From NCBI GenBank assembly GCA_944387375.1, contig CALXEQ010000003.1, forward strand, positions 69,942-133,941: DNA of 64,000 nt, in the 5' to 3' direction. The translations under genes were made by a program, and so were the position numbers. The first letter of the stretch is position 1. Every line of letters begins with the position of its first letter. Origin of the DNA: an uncultured Clostridia bacterium (GTDB lineage: Bacteria > Bacillota > Clostridia > TANB77 > CAG-465). The notes beneath the pieces are model-generated. The model searched no databases. It was not told the origin of the DNA and saw nothing but the letters and a program-made list of their open reading frames with translations. Shown here piece after piece: positions 19,964-62,131 of this stretch.

Positions 19964-21172
19964 GTGGTATTCGTGTTAATAAGAAAAAAATATTTAAATC
20001 AACTTATTGATGGAAAAGATCTAAATTTAATAAAAGTAATAACCGGCGTAAGAAGATGTGGGAAAAGTACATTATTATTACAATATAAAGATTATTTAAT
20101 ATCTCAAAATATCCCTGATGAAGACATTATATATATGAATTTTGAAAGTGCAAAATGGTACGATATTAAAGACTATAAAGACTTATATAATTACATAAAG
20201 AAAAATGTAAAGAATCAAAATAAAAAATATATACTGTTAGATGAAGTACAAAATGTAGAAAAATGGGAAAAAGCAGTAAATTCGCTACTTGTAGATATAA
20301 ATTCTGATATTTATATTACAGGCTCTAATGCTTATCTTCTATCAAGTGAACTTACAACTTTACTAGCAGGAAGAGTACTTACAATAAAAATATATCCTTT
20401 TTCTTATAAAGAGTTTCTTGAAGAATATTCATTTAAAAATGATGAAGATAAATTTGAAAAATTTGATAAATATTTAAAATATGGTGGAATGCCTATGATT
20501 GTAAATATGAAAGATAATGAAAATTTAATATTAAATTATCTTAGTGATTTAAAAGAAGTGGTTTTAAAAAAAGATGTTATTAATAGAAATAAAATAAAAG
20601 ATGTTGTTTTTCTAGATAATTTAATAAAATATATGTCTACAGTAATAGGTAATTTAACAACACCTAATGCTATTGCTGAATTTATGAAGAAAAATGGCAC
20701 TAATATTTCAAATGAGACTGTAGATTCATATCTAAATATGCTTGAAAATGCATATTTTATATATAGAGTTCCTAGATACGAATTAAAAGGAAAGCAACTT
20801 TTAAAAACTCAAGGTAAATATTATTTTATAGATAACGGATTAAAAAATATAATCGCTGGTATATCTTCATATGATACTGGTAGTAGCTATGAGAACTTAA
20901 TATATATTGAACTACTACGTAGAGGTTATGAAGTATATGTTGGACAATATAATGATATAGAAATAGATTTTATCGCTATAAAGCCGAATGAAATAGTATA
21001 CTATCAAGTAGCTAGAAGTATTATGGATGAAAAAGTTGAAGAAAGAGAAAAAAAATCATTACTAGCAATAAATGATAATTATAAAAAGGTAATACTAACA
21101 ATGGATAATGTAAAAAATAAGCAAATTGATGGAATTGAAGTAATAAATATAATTGATTTTCTAATGGAATAA
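19964..21172 (+). CDS. AAA+ superfamily ATPase, DUF4143 family (COG1373-like)
   Basis: P-loop GVRRCGKST, Walker B ILLDEVQ, C-terminal DUF4143-like region. Start is GTG at 19964 or 19973. Confidence 0.75.
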   Translation: MVFVLIRKKYLNQLIDGKDLNLIKVITGVRRCGKSTLLLQYKDYLISQNIPDEDIIYMNFESAKWYDIKDYKDLYNYIKKNVKNQNKKYILLDEVQNVEKWEKAVNSLLVDINSDIYITGSNAYLLSSELTTLLAGRVLTIKIYPFSYKEFLEEYSFKNDEDKFEKFDKYLKYGGMPMIVNMKDNENLILNYLSDLKEVVLKKDVINRNKIKDVVFLDNLIKYMSTVIGNLTTPNAIAEFMKKNGTNISNETVDSYLNMLENAYFIYRVPRYELKGKQLLKTQGKYYFIDNGLKNIIAGISSYDTGSSYENLIYIELLRRGYEVYVGQYNDIEIDFIAIKPNEIVYYQVARSIMDEKVEEREKKSLLAINDNYKKVILTMDNVKNKQIDGIEVINIIDFLME

Positions 21173-24492: not shown

Positions 24493-24750
24493 AAAAACTT
24501 CTCCTTTCTGATACAAGAATAAATAATTATAAAAAAACGCACATACCTGTATATAAGGAATGTACGATTATATCTAAAATATAATATATACAAAATAATA
24601 ACCACCTTAATATACAACATACCATCATATGTGCCCTTTATAACGTAAGGAATACGGCTCAGCTTACTATTAATTCAGCCTGCAACTCAGAGGTGATTTT
24701 CATATAAAACTAATCTAAATGAGCTCACACCATCCTCATCTCGCTTGATA
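24493..24750 (-). promoter_or_regulatory. candidate T-box riboswitch leader of ileS (Ile specifier AUC)
   Basis: A leader of about 250 nt containing a terminator and a partial T-box-like UUAAGGUGGU segment. It has GAAAAUCA (AUC + purine) in a possible specifier loop and AGUAAGCUGAGCC resembling stem I distal elements. Firmicute ileS genes are normally T-box controlled. The ACCGCG part of the T-box consensus was not found. Confidence 0.35.
24531..24566 (-). terminator. intrinsic terminator inside the ileS leader (attenuator)
   Basis: Minus-strand RNA CGUACAU-loop-AUGUGCG (7 bp, one G-U pair) followed by UUUUUUU, about 40 nt upstream of the ileS RBS. Confidence 0.45.
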
Positions 24751-25027
24751 TTTCATTTTATATTACTCTTCCTCGTCATAGTTTTTGTTAATTATTATTT
24801 ATTCTATCTTTTTAACTTCTATCATTATACCATATCCAAACTTTCTTGTAAAGTACTAATTTTAGCATTTGCAATTATTTATGTTTCAATTATATTTTTA
24901 AACAATTTCATAAATATTACGTTTTTATCTTTTTCGACTTTTTTAAACAAAAACTATTGCAAAGTGAAAAATCGTGTGGTATATTATAGTCATCATCTAT
25001 TTTAATACCTTTCATTTTAGATTGGTT

Positions 25028-25048
25028 CCCACTAGTTTTACTAGTGGG
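25028..25048 (+). terminator. hairpin CCCACTAGT-ttt-ACTAGTGGG
   Basis: 9-bp perfect inverted repeat. The downstream plus-strand sequence is moderately T-rich. Confidence 0.3.
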
Positions 25049-25077
25049 ACTTAATTTTAAAAATTCTCATTAAAAAA

Positions 25078-25100
25078 TTACTAGTCAATTTGACTAGTAA
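25078..25100. terminator. bidirectional intrinsic terminator TTACTAGTCA-att-TGACTAGTAA
   Basis: 10-bp perfect inverted repeat flanked by T-runs on both strands. Lies directly after the stop of the 25107-26132 gene. Confidence 0.5.
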
Positions 25101-25106
25101 TTTTTA

Positions 25107-26132
25107 TTATTCTATAATCATATTTGCATTATATTTTACATCTTCATTTAGTCTAGTTGCTGCAGCTTTATTTTCGCCAGGTTTTAATATATCTAATGGT
25201 TTAGTAACCACTTTATATTTCTTTCCATCTTTTTCAAGCTCGAATACACTTATGCTATTTTCTAAAGTTTCTTCTAAATGTCTTAATTCAGTTGTAAAAT
25301 ACATTTCTTCATCTTTTAAAAACATTCCAACTTTTTTAATAATTCTAAACATTTCTGCAATATGTTGTATATCTTCCCCAACAAATACAACTTGTGGCTT
25401 TTCTGCAAAACCAGCATCATTTTTTACAAAATTTTCGTAAAAATCTGAATATAATTGTACTTTCTCTGCAAACATATTTTGCCAATCATCATTTCTTCTT
25501 ACTACTTCAAATACAAAATCTACTTCTTTATTATCTTGTTTTAATGTAACCATTCCACCTGTTGGTTTAAATTTTACATTATATTTTTTTGAATATAGTA
25601 GTATATTAGGATTTGCTCTTACAAATGCTCCTACTTTTTGCATATATGCAATTATTACCTGATTTCCTGCAAGTTTTCTTTTTACAGCAAAAGCAGGCTT
25701 TGTATTTTCTGTAGGTTGCCATGTTGTTGGAATATTTCTTTGCTTTAATATATATGTAGCTATTTTGTCTATGCAATATGCTCTATATGAGCTTTTTCCA
25801 GTTTCACTTTGGAAAAAATATCTTGCAATAACTTTAGACTTTGTTAAATCTTCTAACCATTTTGCTACTTTAGTTTGTCTTTTTTCAACTTCGATATCAT
25901 TTAATTTGCCTCTAAGTTCAAGTACTTGTGTTACTTGTCTTGATGTAACATAACCAAACTCATTGACAACTTCTAGGGCATCAATATGAGATTCATTAAT
26001 ATATCCCATATCCATTTTAAAAACTACTTGATTTATTGATGCAAAGCCCTCTTTACCATCATATACTTTTTTCTCATCTTGCCTTACAGCAAAAGGAGAT
26101 ATAGCAGTTTTTACTTCTTTATCATTTACCAT
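25107..26132 (-). CDS. hypothetical protein (341 aa), last gene of the T4SS-like block. Possibly a replication/relaxation-type mobile-element protein.
   Basis: Strong RBS AAGGAGAGA. Has its own upstream 200-nt intergenic region. No HUH or Walker motifs found. The function call is speculative. Confidence 0.55.
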   Translation of the reverse strand: MVNDKEVKTAISPFAVRQDEKKVYDGKEGFASINQVVFKMDMGYINESHIDALEVVNEFGYVTSRQVTQVLELRGKLNDIEVEKRQTKVAKWLEDLTKSKVIARYFFQSETGKSSYRAYCIDKIATYILKQRNIPTTWQPTENTKPAFAVKRKLAGNQVIIAYMQKVGAFVRANPNILLYSKKYNVKFKPTGGMVTLKQDNKEVDFVFEVVRRNDDWQNMFAEKVQLYSDFYENFVKNDAGFAEKPQVVFVGEDIQHIAEMFRIIKKVGMFLKDEEMYFTTELRHLEETLENSISVFELEKDGKKYKVVTKPLDILKPGENKAAATRLNEDVKYNANMIIE

Positions 26133-26300
26133 TTTTCATCTCTCCTTAAATTTAATTTTGAAATTTTTTGGCCAATCTAGTATAGTTTACTAGAGATAAT
26201 TAAATATCCATTCATATATAATTATCACTAGTATTATATCTCATATGTAAACTTAATGCAACATAATAGTATAATTTATTTAAAAATCATCTTTTTATTT

Positions 26301-26336: not shown

Positions 26337-27158
26337 TTAACCTATAATAATTAATTTTACCTTTTTTCTTTCAAGATTAATTCTTCTAATACTAACTAAT
26401 ACATTTTGTCCATATTCAATTCCATTTACATGATCAGCTATTCCAAGTACATTAGGTGCTATTTCAACAAACACACCTGTTTTTATTGAATTACGGACAA
26501 TTCCTTCTACAATATCTCCTTCTTTAAATTTTTTTATATTATCATCAAATGTTCCTAAAAGCTCTTTACAAGAAAGTTCTATTCTACCTGTATCTCTATC
26601 ATACTTCTTTACAAGTACTTCTATTCTTTGCCCTATTTTAAACATATCTGAAGCATTGTTTAGCATTGTATCTGACATATCATGTATTTTTAAAATACCT
26701 GTTACGCCACCACCTACATCAACAAAAGCAGCATAGTCTTTAAGTCCTACAACAACACCTCTTAATTTCATACCTGGTTTTAAATACTTATACATCCATC
26801 TTCTTACCTTAAGCTCTAATATTCTCTTAGACATAATAAGCTCAAACCCATCTTCAGTTTTTATTATTTCTTTTATACACACAGGTATTACTTTTCCCTT
26901 TTTATTTAATATAAATTTTTCTTCAACTAATCCGTCATCTCCAACAACACTAGACGCCTCATCTCTTGGAATAATAGCTTTTATATCTTTTCCAACTTTT
27001 CCAACCATATTTAAGCTTTCATCAATATCCTCAATGTACATATCTAATACTTGCTGTGATTCTTTTATTTCTTGTAAAGTCTTTTCATTTAAAACAATTT
27101 TCTTATTATCTTTTTTACTTTTTTTAATATTTTTTGAATTCTTTTTATTATTTTCCAT
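26337..27158 (-). CDS. tandem S1 RNA-binding domain protein with Lys-rich N-terminus
   Basis: Two S1-like OB segments: GMKLRGVVVGLKDYAAFVDVGGGVTGILKIHDMSD... and EGDIVEGIVRNSIKTGVFVEIAPNVLGIADHVNG... Confidence 0.7.
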   Translation of the reverse strand: MENNKKNSKNIKKSKKDNKKIVLNEKTLQEIKESQQVLDMYIEDIDESLNMVGKVGKDIKAIIPRDEASSVVGDDGLVEEKFILNKKGKVIPVCIKEIIKTEDGFELIMSKRILELKVRRWMYKYLKPGMKLRGVVVGLKDYAAFVDVGGGVTGILKIHDMSDTMLNNASDMFKIGQRIEVLVKKYDRDTGRIELSCKELLGTFDDNIKKFKEGDIVEGIVRNSIKTGVFVEIAPNVLGIADHVNGIEYGQNVLVSIRRINLERKKVKLIIIG

Positions 27159-27313: not shown

Positions 27314-28249
27314 TTACTCCTCTATAATTTTATAAGTATATTCAATTACATTTTTTACATTTACTTGAATTTTTAAGTCACTTTTATCAAAATAAAAAGT
27401 ATATATATTTGTATCTGATTGAGCATCAAAAATACAATTGTCTGAATTTAATAAAAATATCTCATTTTTATTAGATTTTATAAATTCTTTAAAGTCATGT
27501 ATGTTTCTATATTTAGTCATTTTACAATTTAAATCTAATAATTCATATGCTCTCTCTTGATTATAATTAAAATCTTCTTTAATTTGATTTAAAATATCCT
27601 CTAAATAATCTTGAAATCTTGCATTATATGCTCCAAATATGTTATTAACTTGATTTTCTATTTTATCTGGAAATTGTATTTCTACTTTCTCATCCTCTTT
27701 TAATTCAAAAACACTTTTATCATCTATATATTCTGTTGGTAATAAATTAAAAGTTTTATTAATATCATCTTGTTTTACTATCATAGAAAAGTAATTATGC
27801 TCATTAGATTTTAAATTTCTTAGATTTCCTTTTACAAAATATATATACATATTATTATCTTTATTTCTTGCAACTAAAATATTCTCTATATTTAAGTCAA
27901 AATCATCTTTATAAGTCATTAATGGCAAAATATCATTAATAAGTATATTTTTACTTTCTAGATATTCTTTATCAATTAAATTATATACATTTTGTAAATA
28001 ATAATCTTTATCATCTTGTAAAGTACTAGAATTATAACTTGTAATGCTATAATAATACTTTAAAATGCATGATTTTAATATATAGTACTCTTCTATATTA
28101 TTAATCTTTTGCAATGAAATTTTCGTTTCTTCTGTATCAGCATACTCATCAGATTTTACTATATCATCGTTCTTATCAAAAAATGCAACGGTACTTACCA
28201 CAACAATAATTATAATAATTAATATTATAAAAATATAAAATCTCTTCAT
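27314..28249 (-). CDS. membrane-anchored protein, paralog A (T4SS block)
   Basis: N-terminal TM. Shared motifs with the next gene: YFVKGNLRN/YFVKGVIRN, ERAYELLD/DRAYEYLN, EFIKSNKNE/SFIDSNKNN. RBS AAAGGAGGAG. Confidence 0.6.
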   Translation of the reverse strand: MKRFYIFIILIIIIIVVVSTVAFFDKNDDIVKSDEYADTEETKISLQKINNIEEYYILKSCILKYYYSITSYNSSTLQDDKDYYLQNVYNLIDKEYLESKNILINDILPLMTYKDDFDLNIENILVARNKDNNMYIYFVKGNLRNLKSNEHNYFSMIVKQDDINKTFNLLPTEYIDDKSVFELKEDEKVEIQFPDKIENQVNNIFGAYNARFQDYLEDILNQIKEDFNYNQERAYELLDLNCKMTKYRNIHDFKEFIKSNKNEIFLLNSDNCIFDAQSDTNIYTFYFDKSDLKIQVNVKNVIEYTYKIIEE

Positions 28250-28399
28250 ATAATCTCCTCCTTTATTAAAATTTAGATTTATTATATTAATGTATTATAT
28301 ATTTTATCACAAAAAATTTATCTAGTCAATTATGTAAACATCATGCAAATAAAAAATGGAAGAATTTATATTCTTCCATTAATTAAATTTTATTATAAA

Positions 28400-29380
28400 C
28401 TATATTAAAGATATACTATAATTTAGCTCTGAATAATTATTGCAATATAAAGATATACAATATGTATCAGTTTGATCATAGCAATCCAAAATCATAACTC
28501 CATCTTCATATCTTATTTCATATGTTGAAAATAACATAAAGTACATATTATTTTTATTAGAATCTATAAAACTCTTAAACTCATCAATTGTTTTAAATTC
28601 ATTGGATTTTGCTTGTTCATTAAGATATTCATAAGCTCTATCAATATCATAAAGTAATATTGTTTTTACATTATCAAATCTATACTCAGCAATATCTTCA
28701 ATAGTAGTCGAACTAGAACTAAATTTATTATAGTCTCTATTTTCTACAGACTGTGGTATATCAAAATTTATTTCTTCACCTTCTTTTAAACCATTAAAAT
28801 CAACATCAGCTAAATAATCTCCTAAATACACTTCAAAAGAGCTAGTTGTATTATCTAAAGTTAAAATCATATTAAAGTCTATACCATCATATGTCTCTGT
28901 ATTTCTTATAACACCTTTAACAAAATATGCAGTAACTAATCCAAAATCCTCAGGATTTTCTTCATACTTACTCAAAGAATATACTTCATATAATTCAATC
29001 TTGAAATTCTCTATATATTCTATATTAGAAGTAACATTTTCTTGAGTAATTCCAAGCTTATTAATATAATCAGGTGATAATAAATTATATGTGACATCTC
29101 TATAAAAACTGTCTGTACTATTAGGAGAAGATATTCCATTATAATACAAATAAAATTTTTGTACACAGTTTTTTACTAAATTTAAAGTAGCATATCCTTC
29201 TATTTTTTGTAATTTATTGTTTTCAGAATTTATTATCTCAACATCTGCCTCTCTTAATTCAGTATCACTATAACTGTTATCATTTTCATTAATATTACTT
29301 ACAACTTTAAATATAATTATAATAACAATTATAAAAAGCAACAATATTATTCCAAATATAATTTTTTTATTTTTATACAT
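28400..29380 (-). CDS. membrane-anchored protein, paralog B (T4SS block)
   Basis: See paralog A. Start probably ATG at 29380 (MYKNKKIIFG). Confidence 0.55.
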   Translation of the reverse strand: MYKNKKIIFGIILLLFIIVIIIIFKVVSNINENDNSYSDTELREADVEIINSENNKLQKIEGYATLNLVKNCVQKFYLYYNGISSPNSTDSFYRDVTYNLLSPDYINKLGITQENVTSNIEYIENFKIELYEVYSLSKYEENPEDFGLVTAYFVKGVIRNTETYDGIDFNMILTLDNTTSSFEVYLGDYLADVDFNGLKEGEEINFDIPQSVENRDYNKFSSSSTTIEDIAEYRFDNVKTILLYDIDRAYEYLNEQAKSNEFKTIDEFKSFIDSNKNNMYFMLFSTYEIRYEDGVMILDCYDQTDTYCISLYCNNYSELNYSISLI

Positions 29381-29396
29381 AATATTCACCAACTTT

Positions 29397-40384: not shown

Positions 40385-41059
40385 TTAAATAAATGTTTTA
40401 TTAATTGCTGTAGAAATAAATGACAACACATTAAGAGTTGTGAAAATTAAAATAATACCTATTATATACATAGCACTTTTTTCTTTCAGTTTTGCTTTTA
40501 CTTCGGGACCAGAAAAAATATACTTTACTCCCATATAAACTGTAACTATAACTGCAATAAATTTGGCAGCTAATACTATTATACTAAAAACGCTTGCAAA
40601 AGCACTTTCAAGACTAGAGCCATTAAAAATAAATAGTTGTGTATTTCCAGAAACTCCTGAAACAGCTATATTACCTGTGTTTTGATCATAACTAATATTC
40701 CTGATAAGTAAACCTCTTATATTGGACCATCCAAAGAAAAATATACATGCCACCAATAAAGTAACAAGATTTTCTTTAACAGAAACTTTATCAGATACAC
40801 TTCCTAAAACATATTTTATACCCAAAACAACCGTAGCTATAGCAATAGCTCCTGTTCCTATAGTTTCTACAATATTAGCTATTTGACTAATAACACTAGA
40901 ATCAAAATAAATATCAGTACTTCCCTGGGAATACCATTGAGACGCTTCACTCCAAAAGTCATACGTACTATTATTTTGACTATCGCTAGCATATAAATTA
41001 TTTAAAAATATTGTCATCATAAAAATCATTCCTAATAAAATAATATTTTTCTTTTTCAT
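40385..41059 (-). CDS. tandem-duplicated VirB2/TrbC-like pilin protein
   Basis: Signal peptide plus two copies of the pilin module: IAIATVVLGIKYVLGSVSDKVSVKENLVTLLVACIFFFG and IAVIVTVYMGVKYIFSGPEVKAKLKEKSAMYIIGIILIFTTL. Start uncertain: ATG at 41059 or TTG at 41071. Confidence 0.5.
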   Translation of the reverse strand: MKKKNIILLGMIFMMTIFLNNLYASDSQNNSTYDFWSEASQWYSQGSTDIYFDSSVISQIANIVETIGTGAIAIATVVLGIKYVLGSVSDKVSVKENLVTLLVACIFFFGWSNIRGLLIRNISYDQNTGNIAVSGVSGNTQLFIFNGSSLESAFASVFSIIVLAAKFIAVIVTVYMGVKYIFSGPEVKAKLKEKSAMYIIGIILIFTTLNVLSFISTAINKTFI

Positions 41060-41199
41060 ATTAAACCACAACCCTATTTTTTATAAATAGTTACTCCTTT
41101 CTAGTATAAAATCAAATATTAAATATAGTATAACATATATTAAAGCTATATTAGTAAATTATATATATTTTTTTTATTTTTGTAATAATAGTGAAATAT

Positions 41200-41565
41200 T
41201 TATATACTTGTCATAACATTATTTGATATGTTAGTAATAAATCCTATTATTGTTGGAGCCGCAAATACTAAAATAGTTCCTACTATAAGCCATATTAAAG
41301 TTTCTTTTATCTTCGCTTTATCATTTGAAGCAGCATACATATACTTTACTCCTGTAAAAACAACTCCACAAACTGCCGCAACTTGTAGTACTAAAAGAAT
41401 TGTAGAACCTACACGTGACATTACACCATCTAAAGCTGTATTTCCCTCATTAGCAACATTACCATATAAATCTTCATTAAACCCATTTCCTAAAACAGCA
41501 AAAATATAAGTATTACATATACTAAACAATACTAAAGTTATTAAAAGAATCTTTTTAAATTTCAT
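41200..41565 (-). CDS. VirB2/TrbC-like pilin (prepilin with signal peptide)
   Basis: Signal peptide MKFKKILLITLVLFSICNTYIFA, then two hydrophobic helices separated by KYMYAASNDKAKIKETL. RBS AAGAGGTAG. Confidence 0.55.
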   Translation of the reverse strand: MKFKKILLITLVLFSICNTYIFAVLGNGFNEDLYGNVANEGNTALDGVMSRVGSTILLVLQVAAVCGVVFTGVKYMYAASNDKAKIKETLIWLIVGTILVFAAPTIIGFITNISNNVMTSI

Positions 41566-41740
41566 TTTTCTACCTCTTTTCTATATTCTTATTTATATTA
41601 TACTATATATTATTTTTTTAATCAATTAAAATATTAGTAATATTATGAATTTATAAGCAAAAAATGAACCTCTGAAAAATATCAAAGGTTCATTTTTAAT
41701 TAAGTGCACTTAGTATTATTTAACATATTTATAATCTTAA

Positions 41741-42094
41741 TTATTGTATAACACTATTACCAGCATCAATAATAAATTGAACAACTGTACTTGCTGCGAA
41801 TACTAATATGGCACCTACAACAAGACCAATCATACCATTTTTAATTTCTGCTTTACCATCAGCACTAGCAAACATATACTTAACACCAGCAAATACTATA
41901 GCTGCAATTGCACATATTTGAAGAACTGTAAGAACTGTGCTCCATACGCTTGATACAGCAGTATTAACATTTCCAATTCCTTGACCACTACCCATATTTT
42001 GAATTTCCTCAGGAGTTCGTGCTAACACTGGACAAGTAACAATTACTAATGCTACAAGAACGATTGGCATAACTCTTAACATAAATTTTTTCAT
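41741..42094 (-). CDS. VirB2/TrbC-like pilin (prepilin with signal peptide)
   Basis: Paralog of the 41200 gene (VFAGVKYMFASADGKAEIKNGMIGLVVGAILVFAAS). Start ATG at 42094 with RBS AAAGGAGGGTG. Confidence 0.55.
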   Translation of the reverse strand: MKKFMLRVMPIVLVALVIVTCPVLARTPEEIQNMGSGQGIGNVNTAVSSVWSTVLTVLQICAIAAIVFAGVKYMFASADGKAEIKNGMIGLVVGAILVFAASTVVQFIIDAGNSVIQ

Positions 42095-42126
42095 TATAAA
42101 CACCCTCCTTTGTTTACTCTATTATA

Positions 42127-42155: not shown

Positions 42156-42272
42156 TAGTTTTAATATTTTTTGCCTCTTTAAATGCGAATTTTTATAGAG
42201 TTTTGCTATATTTCTACCCAAATTTTTAGTATATTTTTCTTTACTTTTTTTAATTTACATATATACTATGTA

Positions 42273-42788
42273 ATGGTGATTCTTTTGAAAAAATTTTATT
42301 TTATTTATATTATTGTAATTATACTATATTTTTATTCATTTTCAAACAAAAATTCTGAAAAAAATTTACAAAATAATAATGTTTCTTTTATATATCCTAC
42401 CGAATATACTTCTCTTTCTTCTGAATATGGTAATAGATATTTATATGGATATCAAAACTTTCATGACGGAATAGATTTCTTAGCACCTCAAAATAGTTTA
42501 GTATATGCAAGCTGCGATGGATATGTAATATATTCTTCTTTTTTAGAAACCGGTTATGGAAATACTGTTATTATTTCTCATTCAAATAACTTAAGAACTT
42601 TATACTGTCATTTATCTGAAAATTTTATTGTTAAACCTGGTCAATATGTTAAGCAAGGGGAAATAATAGGATATGTTGGACCAAGATTTTTATCAAATGG
42701 AATACAAAATGGAAATACTACTGGTCCTCACCTTCATTTTTCTATATATAAGGATAATTTCAGCATAAATCCATTAAATTTATTATAA
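42273..42788 (+). CDS. M23 (LytM) family metallo-endopeptidase, membrane-anchored
   Basis: HxxxD motif (HDGIDF), GYGNTVIISH, HLHF motif. N-terminal hydrophobic anchor. Start ATG at 42273. Confidence 0.75.
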   Translation: MVILLKKFYFIYIIVIILYFYSFSNKNSEKNLQNNNVSFIYPTEYTSLSSEYGNRYLYGYQNFHDGIDFLAPQNSLVYASCDGYVIYSSFLETGYGNTVIISHSNNLRTLYCHLSENFIVKPGQYVKQGEIIGYVGPRFLSNGIQNGNTTGPHLHFSIYKDNFSINPLNLL

Positions 42789-42858: not shown

Positions 42859-43002
42859 CGTGTCAATTTTAGATTAAAAATTGACGTTATCATACATATC
42901 TTAATCATTTATAAATGATTAATTCTTTTTTACTCTGGGAATTTATTCCTGGAGTTTTTTATAAAATAAAAATATCAGGATATTTCTTCCTGATATTTTT
43001 AT
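42859..43002 (+). ncRNA. candidate small RNA (~145 nt) between the M23 peptidase and SSB genes
   Basis: Bounded by the consensus promoter upstream and a hairpin plus T-run terminator (42974-42994). Contains three further inverted repeats (42862-42885, ~42901-42922, ~42945-42960). No RBS-preceded ORF. Confidence 0.3.
42974..42994. terminator. bidirectional intrinsic terminator between the convergent M23/sRNA and SSB genes
   Basis: ATCAGGA-tatttct-TCCTGAT hairpin with T-runs on both strands. The ssb stop is at 42999-43001. Confidence 0.5.
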
Positions 43003-43622
43003 TTTTCTACTTTAGCAAATTTTGATACAGAAACTTCATATGCTACTTTCTTTTCAACTTCCCCATTTTCTAATTTTTTTTCATAAGCTCTTGATTGTAT
43101 TCTACCACTTAATTTTACCAAACTACCTACTTTTAAAGTATCACAAAATTTTGCATTTCTTCCCCATAATATACATGGTATATAATCTGATTTTTTATAC
43201 GTTCTATTAACTGCTATTAAAACATCTGCTATTTCTCTTCCTAAAGGAGTTTTTCTATATACAGGTTCTTTACAAATATATCCTATCAAATTTGCATTAT
43301 TTAATGTAACTATTGTATTGTCCTCTAAAAATTCTATTTCTTTTACAAAAACAGATAACACAAGTTTATTTTTCTTTTCTCCTTGCATATTGTATGATCT
43401 AAATTGACCATTAATCTTTACTATTTTATCTACCTGAATTTTATTTATATCAACTAATCTTTCTGATATTATAACAGGTAATATATCCTCATAATTACTT
43501 AGTCTTTTACTTTTTATTGAAAACTTATAAAATTTTTCTTCGAATATTTCATGACTAAATTCAGGTTCACTAATAATTACCCCACCTATAGCTACATTGT
43601 TATTTTCCATATAATTTTCCAC
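42999..43622 (-). CDS. single-stranded DNA-binding protein with two tandem OB folds and no acidic C-terminal tail
   Basis: Domain 2 matches SSB (LIAVNRTY, ILWGRNAKF, GSLVKLSGRIQSRAYE). Domain 1 is a degenerate copy. It ends ...KFAKVEK without the D-D-D-I-P-F type tail. Confidence 0.7.
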   Translation of the reverse strand: MENYMENNNVAIGGVIISEPEFSHEIFEEKFYKFSIKSKRLSNYEDILPVIISERLVDINKIQVDKIVKINGQFRSYNMQGEKKNKLVLSVFVKEIEFLEDNTIVTLNNANLIGYICKEPVYRKTPLGREIADVLIAVNRTYKKSDYIPCILWGRNAKFCDTLKVGSLVKLSGRIQSRAYEKKLENGEVEKKVAYEVSVSKFAKVEK

Positions 43623-43682
43623 TTTTTATCCTCCTTATGTTTATTTATATATTTAATCTTATGTTTTAATAGCAAAAAAAAT

Positions 43683-43715
43683 TACTGTGATATACGCATT
43701 ATATCACAATAATTT
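43683..43715 (-). terminator. intrinsic terminator after the TraX-like gene
   Basis: Inverted repeat attactgtgatata/tatatcacaataat (one mismatch) with a T-run on the minus strand. Confidence 0.4.
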
Positions 43716-43756
43716 TTATTTGTAAATATGTTATGTAAATTATGTTTGCTATACAT

Positions 43757-44482
43757 TTAGATTTTATAGAACATAAAACCTATAATCATAAATAAAATAT
43801 ACTGTACAGGATAAAAATAATAAAATAACTTTTTATTTGAAAATCCTTTTTTACCATTATATAAATATATAGGTATAATTGCAAATAAACTATACTTCAT
43901 TATACTTTCTCCAAACAATATTAAAAATAATACACAACTACTAAATACCAATGCTTTCTTATATTTAATTTTATCATATAAAAACAAAATAGTTATAAAG
44001 AATGGAATTATAAATCCATATTCTATATCTAAAATTATATATAAAGAAAACAAAATTAAAATTAGCAATATATTTATAAATATCTTTTTCACATTATTAG
44101 TTTTTATTATATTATCTAATATAACTAAATAAAGTAAAGAAATTGAAAAAGAAAATAATATATTAGGCTCTCTATAAAAGTTTATACCATAGGTATTATC
44201 TATTAAATTAATTATTGTACCTACAATTATTACTAAAACTTGAGTGATAATTGCAAATTTTAATACTCTAATGATATATTGCTTTAAATCTTTTGTATGT
44301 TTATACCCCTGATAAATTAAAAATGCAAATAAAGGCATCGATATTCTTCCTATACTTCTTAATATATCATATTCATTATTTTCCAAAGCATAGTAGAAAA
44401 AATATCCAATATGATCAATTATCATAGTTATTATAGCTATTATTCTTATATCAAAGGACGAAAAAATTTTTAACGATTTCAT
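43757..44482 (-). CDS. TraX family polytopic membrane protein (putative acyl/acetyltransferase)
   Basis: N-terminal IIAIITMIIDHIGYFFY, the DHIG motif typical of TraX-family proteins. About 8 TM helices. Start codon lies 3 nt after the pgi stop. Confidence 0.6.
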   Translation of the reverse strand: MKSLKIFSSFDIRIIAIITMIIDHIGYFFYYALENNEYDILRSIGRISMPLFAFLIYQGYKHTKDLKQYIIRVLKFAIITQVLVIIVGTIINLIDNTYGINFYREPNILFSFSISLLYLVILDNIIKTNNVKKIFINILLILILFSLYIILDIEYGFIIPFFITILFLYDKIKYKKALVFSSCVLFLILFGESIMKYSLFAIIPIYLYNGKKGFSNKKLFYYFYPVQYILFMIIGFMFYKI

Positions 44483-58879: not shown

Positions 58880-59402
58880 GGAATTCTTTTAATTTTGAGT
58901 CTACTTGTATAAAAACATCATCTTGTAATTTTTTTAATTCGTCATTTTTAAATTTTTCAAGTACAAAATCTACCATATCTTGTTTTGGATATTTAAGTCC
59001 ACCAAGTCCTATTCTAATTCTTGATATTTCTTCACTTGAAAGCATTTGTATAATATTTTTCATTCCATTATGAGTTCCTCCACTTCCTTTTTTTCTAAAT
59101 CTTATTGTACCAAATGGAATATCTACATCATCAAAAATTATAAGTATATCACTATTTTCAACTTTATACCAATTTTTAAGTGCTACTACTGCTTTTCCAC
59201 TTAAATTCATATATGTTAACGGTTTTGCAAAAATAACTTTTTCACCATTTATAACAGTTTGACCCACTAAACAATTGCAACTACTTTTAGTTATTTCAAC
59301 ATTATATACTGATGCTAAATAATCAACTGCCATCCATCCGATATTATGTCTAGTTTTATCATATTCTTTACCAGGATTTCCAAGTCCTACAATAATTTTC
59401 AT
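58869..59402 (-). CDS. pth: peptidyl-tRNA hydrolase
   Basis: MKIIVGLGNPGKEYDKTRHNIGW... Confidence 0.9.
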   Translation of the reverse strand: MKIIVGLGNPGKEYDKTRHNIGWMAVDYLASVYNVEITKSSCNCLVGQTVINGEKVIFAKPLTYMNLSGKAVVALKNWYKVENSDILIIFDDVDIPFGTIRFRKKGSGGTHNGMKNIIQMLSSEEISRIRIGLGGLKYPKQDMVDFVLEKFKNDELKKLQDDVFIQVDSKLKEFLDN

Positions 59403-59576
59403 TCATTATTCACTCTCTTTTCTAACTATTAATTTATATATGTATTATTTTACCTAATACTTTACTCAAAACTCTTGAAAAAATAAGTATTTTATAGTAT
59501 CATTATATATGAATTAAGTTAATATGTCAATTAAAGTCTTATTAACTATTTATATTACTGAAAGTGGTGATTTCGT

Positions 59577-62078
59577 TTGATAGAAAATCTTTTTAAAAAA
59601 TTACATATTTCGGTTAAACCAGAAAAGATTTTAACATATATACTTTATGCTATTAGTATAGTGGTAGCCTTTATATGTTTAGGTCAAATCTTAAGTTTGA
59701 TTGCTGGAAATATACATATGAGTGATAATATATCTATTGATTCTCCAATACCTTATATTATTTCTTTACTATTTATTATTCCAGCACTAGCATTTTCATA
59801 TTTTGTAAACTCAGGAATAGCAAAAAATGATGATGATAAAGTTAAAATGTTTATTGTTACATTCATTCTTTTAGCAATTCCAGTTTTATATGCTATCAGT
59901 GGAACAATAAATTGGATTTGTTGGAATGTATTAGAAGCACTTCCAAAATATGAGGAAGTATTATCTACATACCCACAATTTATTCCACCTGCTGTTAAAG
60001 CACTAACATTATTTATTCCATTCATATCTATAACATATATTTTAGACTATATCTTATCTATATATAATAGTGAAGATTTATTAAAATCTATTGCAGGATT
60101 TGTGGGACTTACTGTTAGTTCTGGTGGAAAGAAAAATGGAGCATTTGACTGTGATACTGTAATAGGTGCTGCAAAAGGTACTTCTGTTCCTATTGTTGTA
60201 CCTGAGAAGAAGCGTTATGAAGCAACTTTAGTTCAAGGTGCTACTGGTACTGGTAAAACAGCTACTGTTTTACTACCTATGAGTGCACTTGATCTTGAAA
60301 AGAAATTCTTCTTTAGAGAATATGCTAAAAAAATTGGATATTCTATGCTAAAAAAAGGTATTGCTTATATGAATGGACCATATGATAACAGATATATAAA
60401 CAGAAACTTTTCATTAAATATGTTAAAACCAAAGACAGGAATGGAAGAACAATTTGAAGATGAGGTAAGACCTTTAGTACAATATGTAGATAATGCAACT
60501 GGAAATATTACATATAGAAATTTAGGTATAACTATAGTAGAAAATGATGGAAACTTTATATCTCAGTTTATTGGTGTAGCCAAAAATTTTGATATAGATG
60601 TATTATCTATAGATCCTGCTAGCCCTGAAACAACTCTTAGTATTAATCCATTTGCTATTCCAGATCCTGCAAAAGCAGCTTCTATTGTAGCGGATGTTCT
60701 TATGGCGATGTATGATCAAAAAGGAAGCAGTGATCCATTCTTTACACAAGTAACTATAGATGCTTTCCAAAACTTATCTATATTACTTAAGGAAATGTAT
60801 CCTGTTCTTCATAATGGTGAAATGGCATCTTTAGAAGACATGCTTGAACTTTTATACAACTTCGATGCTGTTGAAGAAATGACTGAAGAAATGAAAAAAA
60901 TTCCTGAACTAGAACAAAAATATAAATTATTAATAAAATACTTTGAAAAGAATTTCTATAAACCAAGTTTAAATATAAATGGATATGAAATTCCAGGAAC
61001 TCGTGGTAGCGGTAGAAAAGATACTGAAAAATATCTATATGGTGCTATTACTCAACTTAACAATTTAATACGTAACCCTGGACTTAAAGCTGCTCTTTGT
61101 GGTAAAGAAAACGTAATTGACTTTGATAAAGCCTTAGCAAATGGTAGTGTAATAACAGCTTGTTCAAGAAAAGGTGATCTTGGTATTATACAAGCAAAAG
61201 CATTTGGTATGTTCTTTATATTACAATTCCAAGATGCAGTACTTAGAAGAAAAGGAAATGAAGAATCTAGAACACCTCATTTCTTATATATAGATGAATT
61301 TCCTGAATATATTACAAAAGACATGGAAGTTATGTTTACACTATTTAGAAAATATAGATGTGGTGTTACAGTTGCAATTCAAAACTTATCTCAACTTGAA
61401 AAATCTGGTCATTCTTATTACAGGCAAACTGTACTTGCAAATACTAAGACACAAATAGTATTTGGTGATACTGTAAAAGAAGACAGTGAATATTGGAGTG
61501 AAGCTTTTGGTATGGAGAAAAAAGTAGATTCTTCTACTTCATATAAAATTGATCCTACAGAAGGATTTAAAGCTGAGCCTACAAAAATAAATGTTAAAGA
61601 TAAAGAAAGAATTAAAAAGCATAAACTTGCAGAACTTGGATTTGGATCAATGTTTTACAAGACAAAAACTGCTAATGGAAAAACTGTATTTGGAGAAGGT
61701 AAAACATCATTCTTGGCAGATAAATACAAACAACATCAAAATACACTTATGTTTAATTTTGAAAAATATATGATGTCTAAACCTGATGCTCCAACTATAA
61801 CTATGAATGATAGTGACAATTCAACTAGTGATGATAACCTATTTGGAATAAACACTACTAATAGATTAAAAGAAGAAATTAAGAAAAATGTAACTGCTTC
61901 AAATGTTAATAACAATCCTGATTTTATTTCTACAGGTACAGATTATTCTCAAGATGATAGTACAAATGATATTGAAATCGTATTTGAAAATAATGATGTA
62001 ACACTAGATCAACAAGGAAATGGTGGAGCTATTACAGAAAACTATGAATCACCAATTATAAAAAGAAATAAAAATTAA
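59577..62078 (+). CDS. type IV coupling protein (VirD4/TraG/TraD-like T4CP), orphan
   Basis: N-terminal TM helices. Walker A LVQGATGTGKT, Walker B-like LYIDEFPEY, VAIQNLSQLE motif. Long Asn/Asp-rich C-terminal tail. TTG start at 59577, with an alternative ATG further downstream. Confidence 0.75.
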   Translation: MIENLFKKLHISVKPEKILTYILYAISIVVAFICLGQILSLIAGNIHMSDNISIDSPIPYIISLLFIIPALAFSYFVNSGIAKNDDDKVKMFIVTFILLAIPVLYAISGTINWICWNVLEALPKYEEVLSTYPQFIPPAVKALTLFIPFISITYILDYILSIYNSEDLLKSIAGFVGLTVSSGGKKNGAFDCDTVIGAAKGTSVPIVVPEKKRYEATLVQGATGTGKTATVLLPMSALDLEKKFFFREYAKKIGYSMLKKGIAYMNGPYDNRYINRNFSLNMLKPKTGMEEQFEDEVRPLVQYVDNATGNITYRNLGITIVENDGNFISQFIGVAKNFDIDVLSIDPASPETTLSINPFAIPDPAKAASIVADVLMAMYDQKGSSDPFFTQVTIDAFQNLSILLKEMYPVLHNGEMASLEDMLELLYNFDAVEEMTEEMKKIPELEQKYKLLIKYFEKNFYKPSLNINGYEIPGTRGSGRKDTEKYLYGAITQLNNLIRNPGLKAALCGKENVIDFDKALANGSVITACSRKGDLGIIQAKAFGMFFILQFQDAVLRRKGNEESRTPHFLYIDEFPEYITKDMEVMFTLFRKYRCGVTVAIQNLSQLEKSGHSYYRQTVLANTKTQIVFGDTVKEDSEYWSEAFGMEKKVDSSTSYKIDPTEGFKAEPTKINVKDKERIKKHKLAELGFGSMFYKTKTANGKTVFGEGKTSFLADKYKQHQNTLMFNFEKYMMSKPDAPTITMNDSDNSTSDDNLFGINTTNRLKEEIKKNVTASNVNNNPDFISTGTDYSQDDSTNDIEIVFENNDVTLDQQGNGGAITENYESPIIKRNKN

Positions 62079-62131
62079 TTAAAAATATCTCTTACTTTTA
62101 TGTAAGAGATATTTTTATTGTAGATATTTAT

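Follow-up and report, generated by a model that had tools for sequence, protein, structure and literature searches.

The organisation of a 64-kb stretch of DNA (the window) on contig CALXEQ010000003.1 of an uncultured Clostridia bacterium of the TANB77 lineage was analysed, with a putative type IV coupling protein (T4CP) as the main subject. The open reading frame (ORF) of this protein occupies positions 59577-62078 of the plus strand, encodes 833 amino acids (aa) from a TTG start and is the sole long ORF at that place. It is adjoined by pth (58869-59402, minus strand) on one side, and by a 98-aa ORF, YgjV and then a PALP/cysK-type gene on the other; the placement between pth and cysK given in the initial annotation was therefore correct apart from these two small interposed genes. 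A type IV secretion system (T4SS) block is located on the minus strand at 25-42 kb. Its nearest gene, encoding a pilin, ends at 42103, so that 17.5 kb separate the two loci, and the T4CP gene is embedded among housekeeping genes as had been described. None of the ORFs of the block matched a T4CP family, in accordance with the earlier statement that the block has no T4CP of its own.

The coupling protein and its conservation

The TTG start of the T4CP gene is preceded by a GGTG-type ribosome-binding site at 8-10 nt. Some database entries start at an internal ATG (786 aa in one of them); the TTG start was preferred because the N-terminal ~45 residues are kept in the homologues. The hydropathy profile revealed four membrane segments at residues of about 15-48, 52-82, 87-115 and 135-163, followed by a P-loop nucleotide-binding domain (NBD). 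The Walker A motif GATGTGKT is located at residue 221, the Walker B motif LYIDEFPEY at 570 and the motif VAIQNLSQLE at 599. The tail (residues 740-833, 94 residues) contains 18% Asn and 18% Asp plus Glu and is closed by the motif GGAITExYE(S/T)PxIK, which is nearly invariant in the homologues. The same near-invariance was observed for the NBD and for the stretch between the Walker motifs, and GATGTGKT and LYIDEF did not vary at all. The membrane helices, motifs and acidic Asn-rich tail were thus all found at the places first claimed for them.

The T4CP architecture proposed on that basis was borne out by profile hidden Markov model searches. The three Pfam families of T4CPs (PF02534, PF12696 and PF10412) all matched above their gathering scores, with 39.4 bits for T4SS-DNA_transf (cut-off 20.1), 43.7 bits for TraG-D_C (cut-off 22) and 24.6 bits for TrwB_AAD_bind (cut-off 20.5). 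The top NCBIfam matches were likewise all T4CPs (CD1115, Bacteroides MobC, VirD4, TraD), and hundreds of plasmid proteins matching the sequence are annotated as T4CPs.

The distribution of the protein and the selection acting on it were also analysed. There were 375 close homologues, and the best 120 clusters are 64-100% identical over the full length, on contigs of up to 570 kb labelled as uncultured Clostridia. A scan of contigs from one genome per species revealed a relative of the T4CP in at least 593 species of uncultured gut Clostridia. The divergent pth neighbour was present in 68 of the 80 loci examined, over T4CP identities from 95% down to ~41%, and the identity of the T4CP followed that of its neighbours closely (rho 0.90 for pth, 0.90 for rplU and 0.94 for obg). 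The dN/dS ratio against the two closest species was 0.041-0.046 for the T4CP, compared to 0.14-0.15 for pth and 0.07 for obg. The ORF is uninterrupted, purifying selection on it is stronger than on the essential genes around it, and it has been located next to pth since ancient times. The VirB4 of the T4SS block shows conservation equal to or greater than that of the T4CP within this lineage, with 84-100% identity in more than 120 clusters. Homologues of T4CP and VirB4 were placed on the same contigs in other species by matching longest-contig sizes alone (161052, 59371, 51700, 285757 and 51185).

Nine loci (L061, L063, L064, L069, L070, L072, L075, L076 and L079) have a pair of T4CP paralogues in tandem, with 39-45% identity to the window protein. 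At L063 the tandem genes are located among housekeeping genes (topoisomerase, truB, DAGK, yunB) without pth.

Genetic partners on chromosomes and plasmids

Comparison of the related species loci revealed that in 13 of 80 the T4CP gene is followed by homologues of two window genes, the convergent arrangement being observed at L043, L048, L050, L051, L067, L068, L073, L078, L080-L083, L085 and L086. In the window these two genes form the far end of the T4SS block, 34 kb from the T4CP gene. They encode a 341-aa protein (h341; 25107-26132, minus strand) and a 273-aa S1-domain protein (26337-27158, minus strand), a pair conserved on chromosomes as well as plasmids. Eight metagenome contigs of a more distant family, belonging to another human-gut lineage of ~30% GC whose T4CP is 32-34% identical, carry the T4CP followed by an h341 homologue among housekeeping genes, and in one of them an S1 homologue is also present. 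At L088 the window's order VirB4...hydrolase-S1-h341 is kept. At L166 h341 stands alone, ~24 kb from the T4CP, the positions being those on two near-identical assemblies of the contig. The initial annotation had called the T4CP gene an orphan, which these adjacencies contradict, since the candidate partner at the end of the block adjoins it in relatives. Its statement that no integrase or relaxase is nearby held for integrases and recognised relaxases, neither of which was found across the window, and failed to account for h341 as a candidate DNA-processing gene. The h341 protein is the most constant genetic partner of the T4CP and is usually paired with the S1-domain protein. Its homologues are 72-93% identical over 120 clusters and are more conserved than the T4CP. 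Because the contexts of T4CP, h341 and S1 differ, the parts of the system are in different arrangements from lineage to lineage, yet all of them are conserved.

In two deeper lineages (L073, 13416-17012; L081, 16302-19124) the S1-h341 pair comes directly 3' of rplQ, the gene that closes the rpoA ribosomal-protein operon, and is oriented like that operon. The genes beyond S1 at L048 (encoding 227, 161, 150, 1280, 290 and 174 aa, the 1280-aa protein with lysozyme2 and M23 domains) look like T4SS periphery, which is suggestive only, and their products had no detectable similarity to the block proteins of the window or of L088.

The h341 protein gave no Pfam match at E<=0.01. Fold analysis assigned to it an N-terminal winged helix-turn-helix (wHTH) and a restriction-endonuclease-like PD-(D/E)xK domain. 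The Replic_Relax family (PF13814) matched weakly in all 29 h341 homologues tested (best E 5.7e-6), and a precomputed PF13814 match exists for four homologues. PF13814 has been placed in the PD-(D/E)xK superfamily, and Replic_Relax proteins have also been predicted to act as transcriptional regulators (PMC3424549); the family corresponds to the MOBC class of relaxases, with TraX of pAD1 as the prototype (PMC5357655, PMC12857230). The chromosomal homologues all share D205, E209, R212, R213, E223, K224, E253, D254 and H257. Judged by its sequence, h341 is a candidate relaxase or DNA-processing partner of the T4CP with weak likeness to Replic_Relax. It was not assigned to MOBC because it has no significant similarity to TraX and shares few invariant residues with its plasmid homologues.

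A tblastn search of 72,556 plasmids returned h341 homologues in only nine records, namely the C. botulinum pFWSKR40E1 family, C. beijerinckii p1 and two Thermoanaerobacterium plasmids, pMU3262 and one of equal length (NZ_CP107023.1, NZ_KT897275-80, NC_017998.1, NC_019956.1). All nine rank among the best plasmid matches of the T4CP. These plasmids are the closest mobile relatives of the system; all of them carry a T4CP homologue, and in the three examined, one of each family (pFWSKR40E1, p1 and pMU3262), a gene with an S1 RNA-binding domain is located directly 5' of the h341 homologue. They differ from the window in being plasmid-borne, with integrases nearby, and they are uncharacterised; MOB-suite typed the plasmids with T4CP, S1 and h341 as non-mobilizable. 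The VirB4 was confirmed together with the module on C. beijerinckii p1 (CP107023), where 25 kb contain homologues of VirB4 (42% identity over the full length), of the 478-aa block protein h478 (26%), of the T4CP (35%), of S1 (25%) and of h341 (24%). The parts are dispersed in the window, unlike on p1, and the T4CP of p1 is larger (1001 aa).

The S1-domain protein was also considered as ribosomal protein S1. Its NCBIfam rpsA matches are sub-threshold, and because the S1-h341 pair recurs on three plasmid families, this was ruled out as the primary reading and the protein was assigned to the T4SS-type system. The intergenic region of S1 and h341 in the window contains an inverted repeat (26188-26233) with 20-nt arms that are 90% complementary. 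L048, L050 and L088 also have repeats in this position, with unrelated sequences in AT-rich DNA, and no conserved origin of transfer (oriT) is proposed there.

Proposed system and alternative explanations

With a probability of roughly 0.7, the T4CP is a functional coupling ATPase that belongs, as a vertically inherited and chromosomally fixed part, to a conjugation-derived T4SS in a large clade of uncultured low-GC gut Clostridia. Three associations connect the T4CP to a VirB4-type T4SS and a DNA-processing protein: the VirB4 block in the same window, the plasmid on which all parts lie within 25 kb, and the adjacency of T4CP and h341 in many genomes. Since p1 has VirB4, h478, T4CP, S1 and h341 together, the two loci of the window can be read as pieces of a single conjugative-type system that came to reside in the chromosome. 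The comparisons support descent of both loci from one such system, rearranged differently by lineage, thereby favouring the one of the two original suggestions by which rearrangement had separated parts of a single system; the adjacency of T4CP, h341 and S1 in relatives points the same way.

A mechanism can be proposed on this basis. The T4CP, anchored by its four transmembrane (TM) helices, would dock on a channel of the VirB4 and VirB6-like proteins, the genes of which lie at 27-42 kb. A substrate that h341, alone or together with the S1 protein, has prepared or marked (bound or nicked) would be recruited by the T4CP, whose ATP hydrolysis would drive the transfer. The substrate would most likely be a nucleoprotein complex, or possibly a protein. 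Because the nuclease-fold partner is kept and a gene for a single-stranded DNA-binding protein (SSB) lies next to the block, the evidence leans to DNA as the substrate, with protein secretion or an exapted role also possible. The components may act in trans from dispersed loci, by analogy with the rvh system of Rickettsiales and the T4SSs of Patescibacteria (PMC12102498).

Several known systems were compared. The module of pAD1 and pTEF1 (T4CP TraW with the MOBC protein TraX) is alike in that the T4CP adjoins a gene of Replic_Relax/PD-(D/E)xK type, and on pTEF1, which is of the pAD1 type, the T4CP gene is directly 5' of that of the Replic_Relax relaxase. It is likewise a Gram-positive T4SS with PrgI/TcpE-like components and a CHAP hydrolase. 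It differs in that pTEF1 is a mobile plasmid, whereas the present system is chromosomally fixed, and in having no S1-domain partner in the 50 kb examined by tblastn; its TraX is not significantly similar to h341, and the two T4CPs align only around Walker B. The Rickettsiales rvh T4SS resembles the present system in its vertically inherited genes, VirD4 included, which are dispersed over several islands on the chromosome of a reduced genome, with duplication of components. It differs in being of the diderm MPF-T type and in delivering protein effectors into eukaryotic cells, and it is not known to have a relaxase-like partner.

The closest precedent is the T4SS of Patescibacteria, which is also found in monoderms, with a MPF-FATA-like VirB4 and VirB2-like pilins, chromosomally encoded and clade-wide in small-genome uncultured bacteria. 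In that group t4cp mostly lies at a distance from virB4, the relaxases detected are most often of the MOBC class, which is frequently encoded close to t4cp, and in one strain t4cp is non-essential whereas other T4SS genes are essential (PMC12102498). The differences are the host, Candidate Phyla Radiation (CPR) there and a Clostridia lineage here, the deep fixation of the T4CP beside pth, and the Replic_Relax-like partner, which is rare there and near-universal here. The TANB77 paper reported a Tad pilus, and its main text makes no mention of conjugation or of VirB-type genes; the system appears to be undescribed in the literature searched.

A number of results weigh against the preferred reading. 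The three Pfam matches span only residues ~543-674, that is ~130 residues. None of the NCBIfam equivalog cut-offs for T4CPs was reached; the best match, conju_CD1115, scored 41.8 bits compared to 250, and the others were far below. A profile search of the PDB sequences with the T4CP returned DotL alone (E 0.003). The AlphaFold2 model, built from a 15-sequence alignment, has a mean predicted local distance difference test score (pLDDT) of 44, with the NBD below 50 and the helices of the TM region at 70-90. Because the equivalog cut-offs are far off and only DotL was found among the PDB sequences, the protein is best described, from its sequence, as a T4CP of a distinct, unnamed and uncharacterised subfamily. 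For the partner, the window h341 is below the Pfam cut-off of Replic_Relax (14.8 bits, E 0.03, compared to 25.3), and its alignment with TraX of pTEF1 covers only the wHTH and is not significant (hhalign probability 0.6%, E 0.09). When the plasmid homologues are included, only R212, E253, TSxQ, R104, W138, N157 and T280 are invariant, without a canonical D...(D/E)xK triad. No oriT was identified, the intergenic inverted repeats varying in sequence between lineages, and in the deeper lineages no mating-pair formation (Mpf) gene was found within 8-10 kb of T4CP-h341.

The last point also bears on the strongest alternative, according to which T4CP and h341, alone or joined by S1, are an exapted module complete in itself. 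It would work without the VirB4 channel, for example as a membrane DNA pump with a nuclease that handles the chromosome or other DNA, or as a regulator pair, the presence of the T4SS block being historical. The linkage of T4CP to h341 is much tighter and deeper than its linkage to Mpf genes, and in several lineages the pair is found among housekeeping genes remote from any Mpf gene. The distant and, in one strain, dispensable t4cp of Patescibacteria (PMC12102498) and the regulators predicted within Replic_Relax (PMC3424549) are consistent with such a module. Against this, C. beijerinckii p1 carries the module together with VirB4 and h478, S1-h341 is the last part of the Mpf block in the window and at L088, and the VirB4 is on the same contigs as the T4CP and not less conserved. 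An independent module was considered unlikely, though it is the most probable of the alternatives.

Much less probable is a currently mobile integrative and conjugative element (ICE), or a recent ICE insertion, that targets the pth region. All components do have plasmid homologues, and genes for a TraX-family protein and an SSB flank the block. The window contains no integrase or recombinase, no flanking repeats were found, and the single tRNA (46547) adjoins neither the T4CP locus nor the T4SS block. The T4CP locus and the block are like the rest of the window in GC content and are 17 kb apart, with housekeeping genes in between. The synteny with pth, kept at T4CP identities from 41 to 95%, and the co-divergence (rho 0.9) are contrary to recent arrival.

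It is more improbable still that the 833-aa protein is another membrane-anchored P-loop translocase (FtsK/SpoIIIE, HerA or TcpA-like), a possibility that the confinement of its T4CP matches to the Walker B region and its marginal similarity to solved T4CPs would allow. The FtsK/SpoIIIE and other ATPase check called for at the outset gave no support to such an identity, as neither FtsK_SpoIIIE nor DUF87/HerA matched the protein at E<=1 in Pfam, whereas the block VirB4 does match DUF87 and P-loop_TraG. A separate FtsK is encoded in the related genome L088, the best NCBIfam matches and the hundreds of plasmid annotations are all to T4CPs, and hhalign aligned the protein with the pTEF1 T4CP at E 8e-5 around Walker B. 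The last possibility, a decaying and functionless relic of a second, lost conjugative element, as the initial annotation had also suggested, is prompted by the T4CP standing alone among housekeeping genes and can be practically dismissed because of the dN/dS of 0.04-0.05 (lower than for the essential neighbours), the relatives in at least 593 species genomes, the deep pth synteny, the full-length ORF in hundreds of species and the invariant motifs.

Beyond the assignment of the T4CP as part of a fixed conjugation-derived T4SS, a wider and rather doubtful proposal can be made. An order-level clade of uncultured, small-genome gut Clostridia, possibly GTDB TANB77 with its neighbours, may keep a dispersed T4SS vertically under strong purifying selection, with a substrate-processing module of a new type that consists of the T4CP, the wHTH/PD-(D/E)xK protein and the S1-domain protein. 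This module may be the missing 'relaxase' of a family of large Clostridium plasmids, and its chromosomal form may serve the host in regular export or exchange of chromosomal DNA, or in cell-to-cell interaction as in Patescibacteria. If this is true, a widespread clade of uncultured gut Firmicutes joins CPR bacteria and Rickettsiales as a group in which conjugation machinery is permanently domesticated, and the role of such systems in small-genome bacteria could be studied in a second, independent case. S1 with h341 is a candidate new DNA-processing module missed by standard relaxase typing, and if h341 is a relaxase, the mobility of large Clostridium plasmids, including those of C. botulinum, may be underestimated. 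The T4CP-h341 gene pair provides a simple marker for the system in metagenomes.

Gene content of the block and the surrounding region

The T4SS block is arranged in transcription order as three pilins, PrgI, the 478-aa protein, VirB4, a 501-aa protein, three unassigned proteins, a hydrolase, two single-TM paralogues, S1 and h341. The three TrbC/VirB2-like pilin paralogues of 228, 121 and 120 aa (40385-42103, minus strand, as for all genes of the block) are followed by the PrgI-family, VirB3-like membrane protein (39978-40367) and by h478 (38541-39977), which is located 5' of VirB4 and matches its homologue in the plasmid system with an E-value of 4e-26. The VirB4-type ATPase (36516-38510) had its best NCBIfam match to CD1110 with 217.8 bits, below the 325-bit cut-off. 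The 501-aa polytopic membrane protein (35024-36529) is VirB6-like by position and showed weak matches to T4SS_pilin and MMCAP2_0566. Three proteins of 278, 187 and 352 aa without family assignment (32498-35012) come next, and L088 has conserved counterparts of the second and third. The 1031-aa cell-wall hydrolase (29397-32492) has lysozyme and CHAP domains and may have a VirB1-like role. The two single-TM proteins of 311 and 342 aa (27314-29428), also without family assignment, are paralogues of 28% identity with one N-terminal TM helix each. The three pilin paralogues stand in tandem in a monoderm, and a 630-aa protein of L088 has similar pilin-like segments.

An M23 peptidase gene beside the block (42183-42788, plus strand) is possibly associated with it. 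Also directly beside the block, on the minus strand at 42999-44482, are the genes of the TraX-family membrane protein and of the SSB, which has two domains and is of NCBIfam PRK05813 type (294 bits). Similar SSB and TraX genes are also found 5' of pth-T4CP in L074 and L078, and the SSB gene alone in L080, L082 and L083.

Around the T4CP gene, a consensus scan indicated overlapping divergent promoter-like sites at 59475-59530 (TTGAAA-17-TATCAT on the plus strand for the T4CP; TTGACA-17-TATAAT on the minus strand for pth), the count of such sites not being above the shuffled expectation. A perfect 16-bp, terminator-like hairpin is located between the T4CP gene and the convergent 98-aa ORF (62080-62117), because of which the T4CP gene looks monocistronic; L001 carries an analogous hairpin.

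The GC content is 22-32% throughout the window. The region of 43-59 kb contains, besides SSB and the TraX-family protein, pgi, tRNA-Lys, obg, a class-I Trp/Tyr-type tRNA synthetase (labelled trpS), an RNase J-like protein, rpmA, rplU and pth. At 58119-58769 (minus strand) rplU adjoins rpmA with no Prp (ysxB) gene between them, and the same was observed in L001-L004. An N-terminal propeptide of L27 is usual in Firmicutes; the L27 of the window starts without one, which is unusual for a lineage labelled as Clostridia. The region of 21-24.5 kb contains ileS. The T-box leader 5' of ileS (24627-24788, minus strand) scored 80.1 bits (E 1e-17), less than the 93 bits of the Rfam gathering score, and a search at the default threshold does not detect it. 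Two terminator-like hairpins (about 25040-25100) come after h341 and before this leader. An ABC transporter and the dcw cell-division cluster occupy 1-19 kb. The AAA_14/DUF4143 ATPase gene at 19964-21172 (plus strand) is on the strand opposite to all its neighbours. The GC skew rises from about -0.3 to ~0 at 20-22 kb, the only such stretch up to there, and this ATPase gene may have been inserted.

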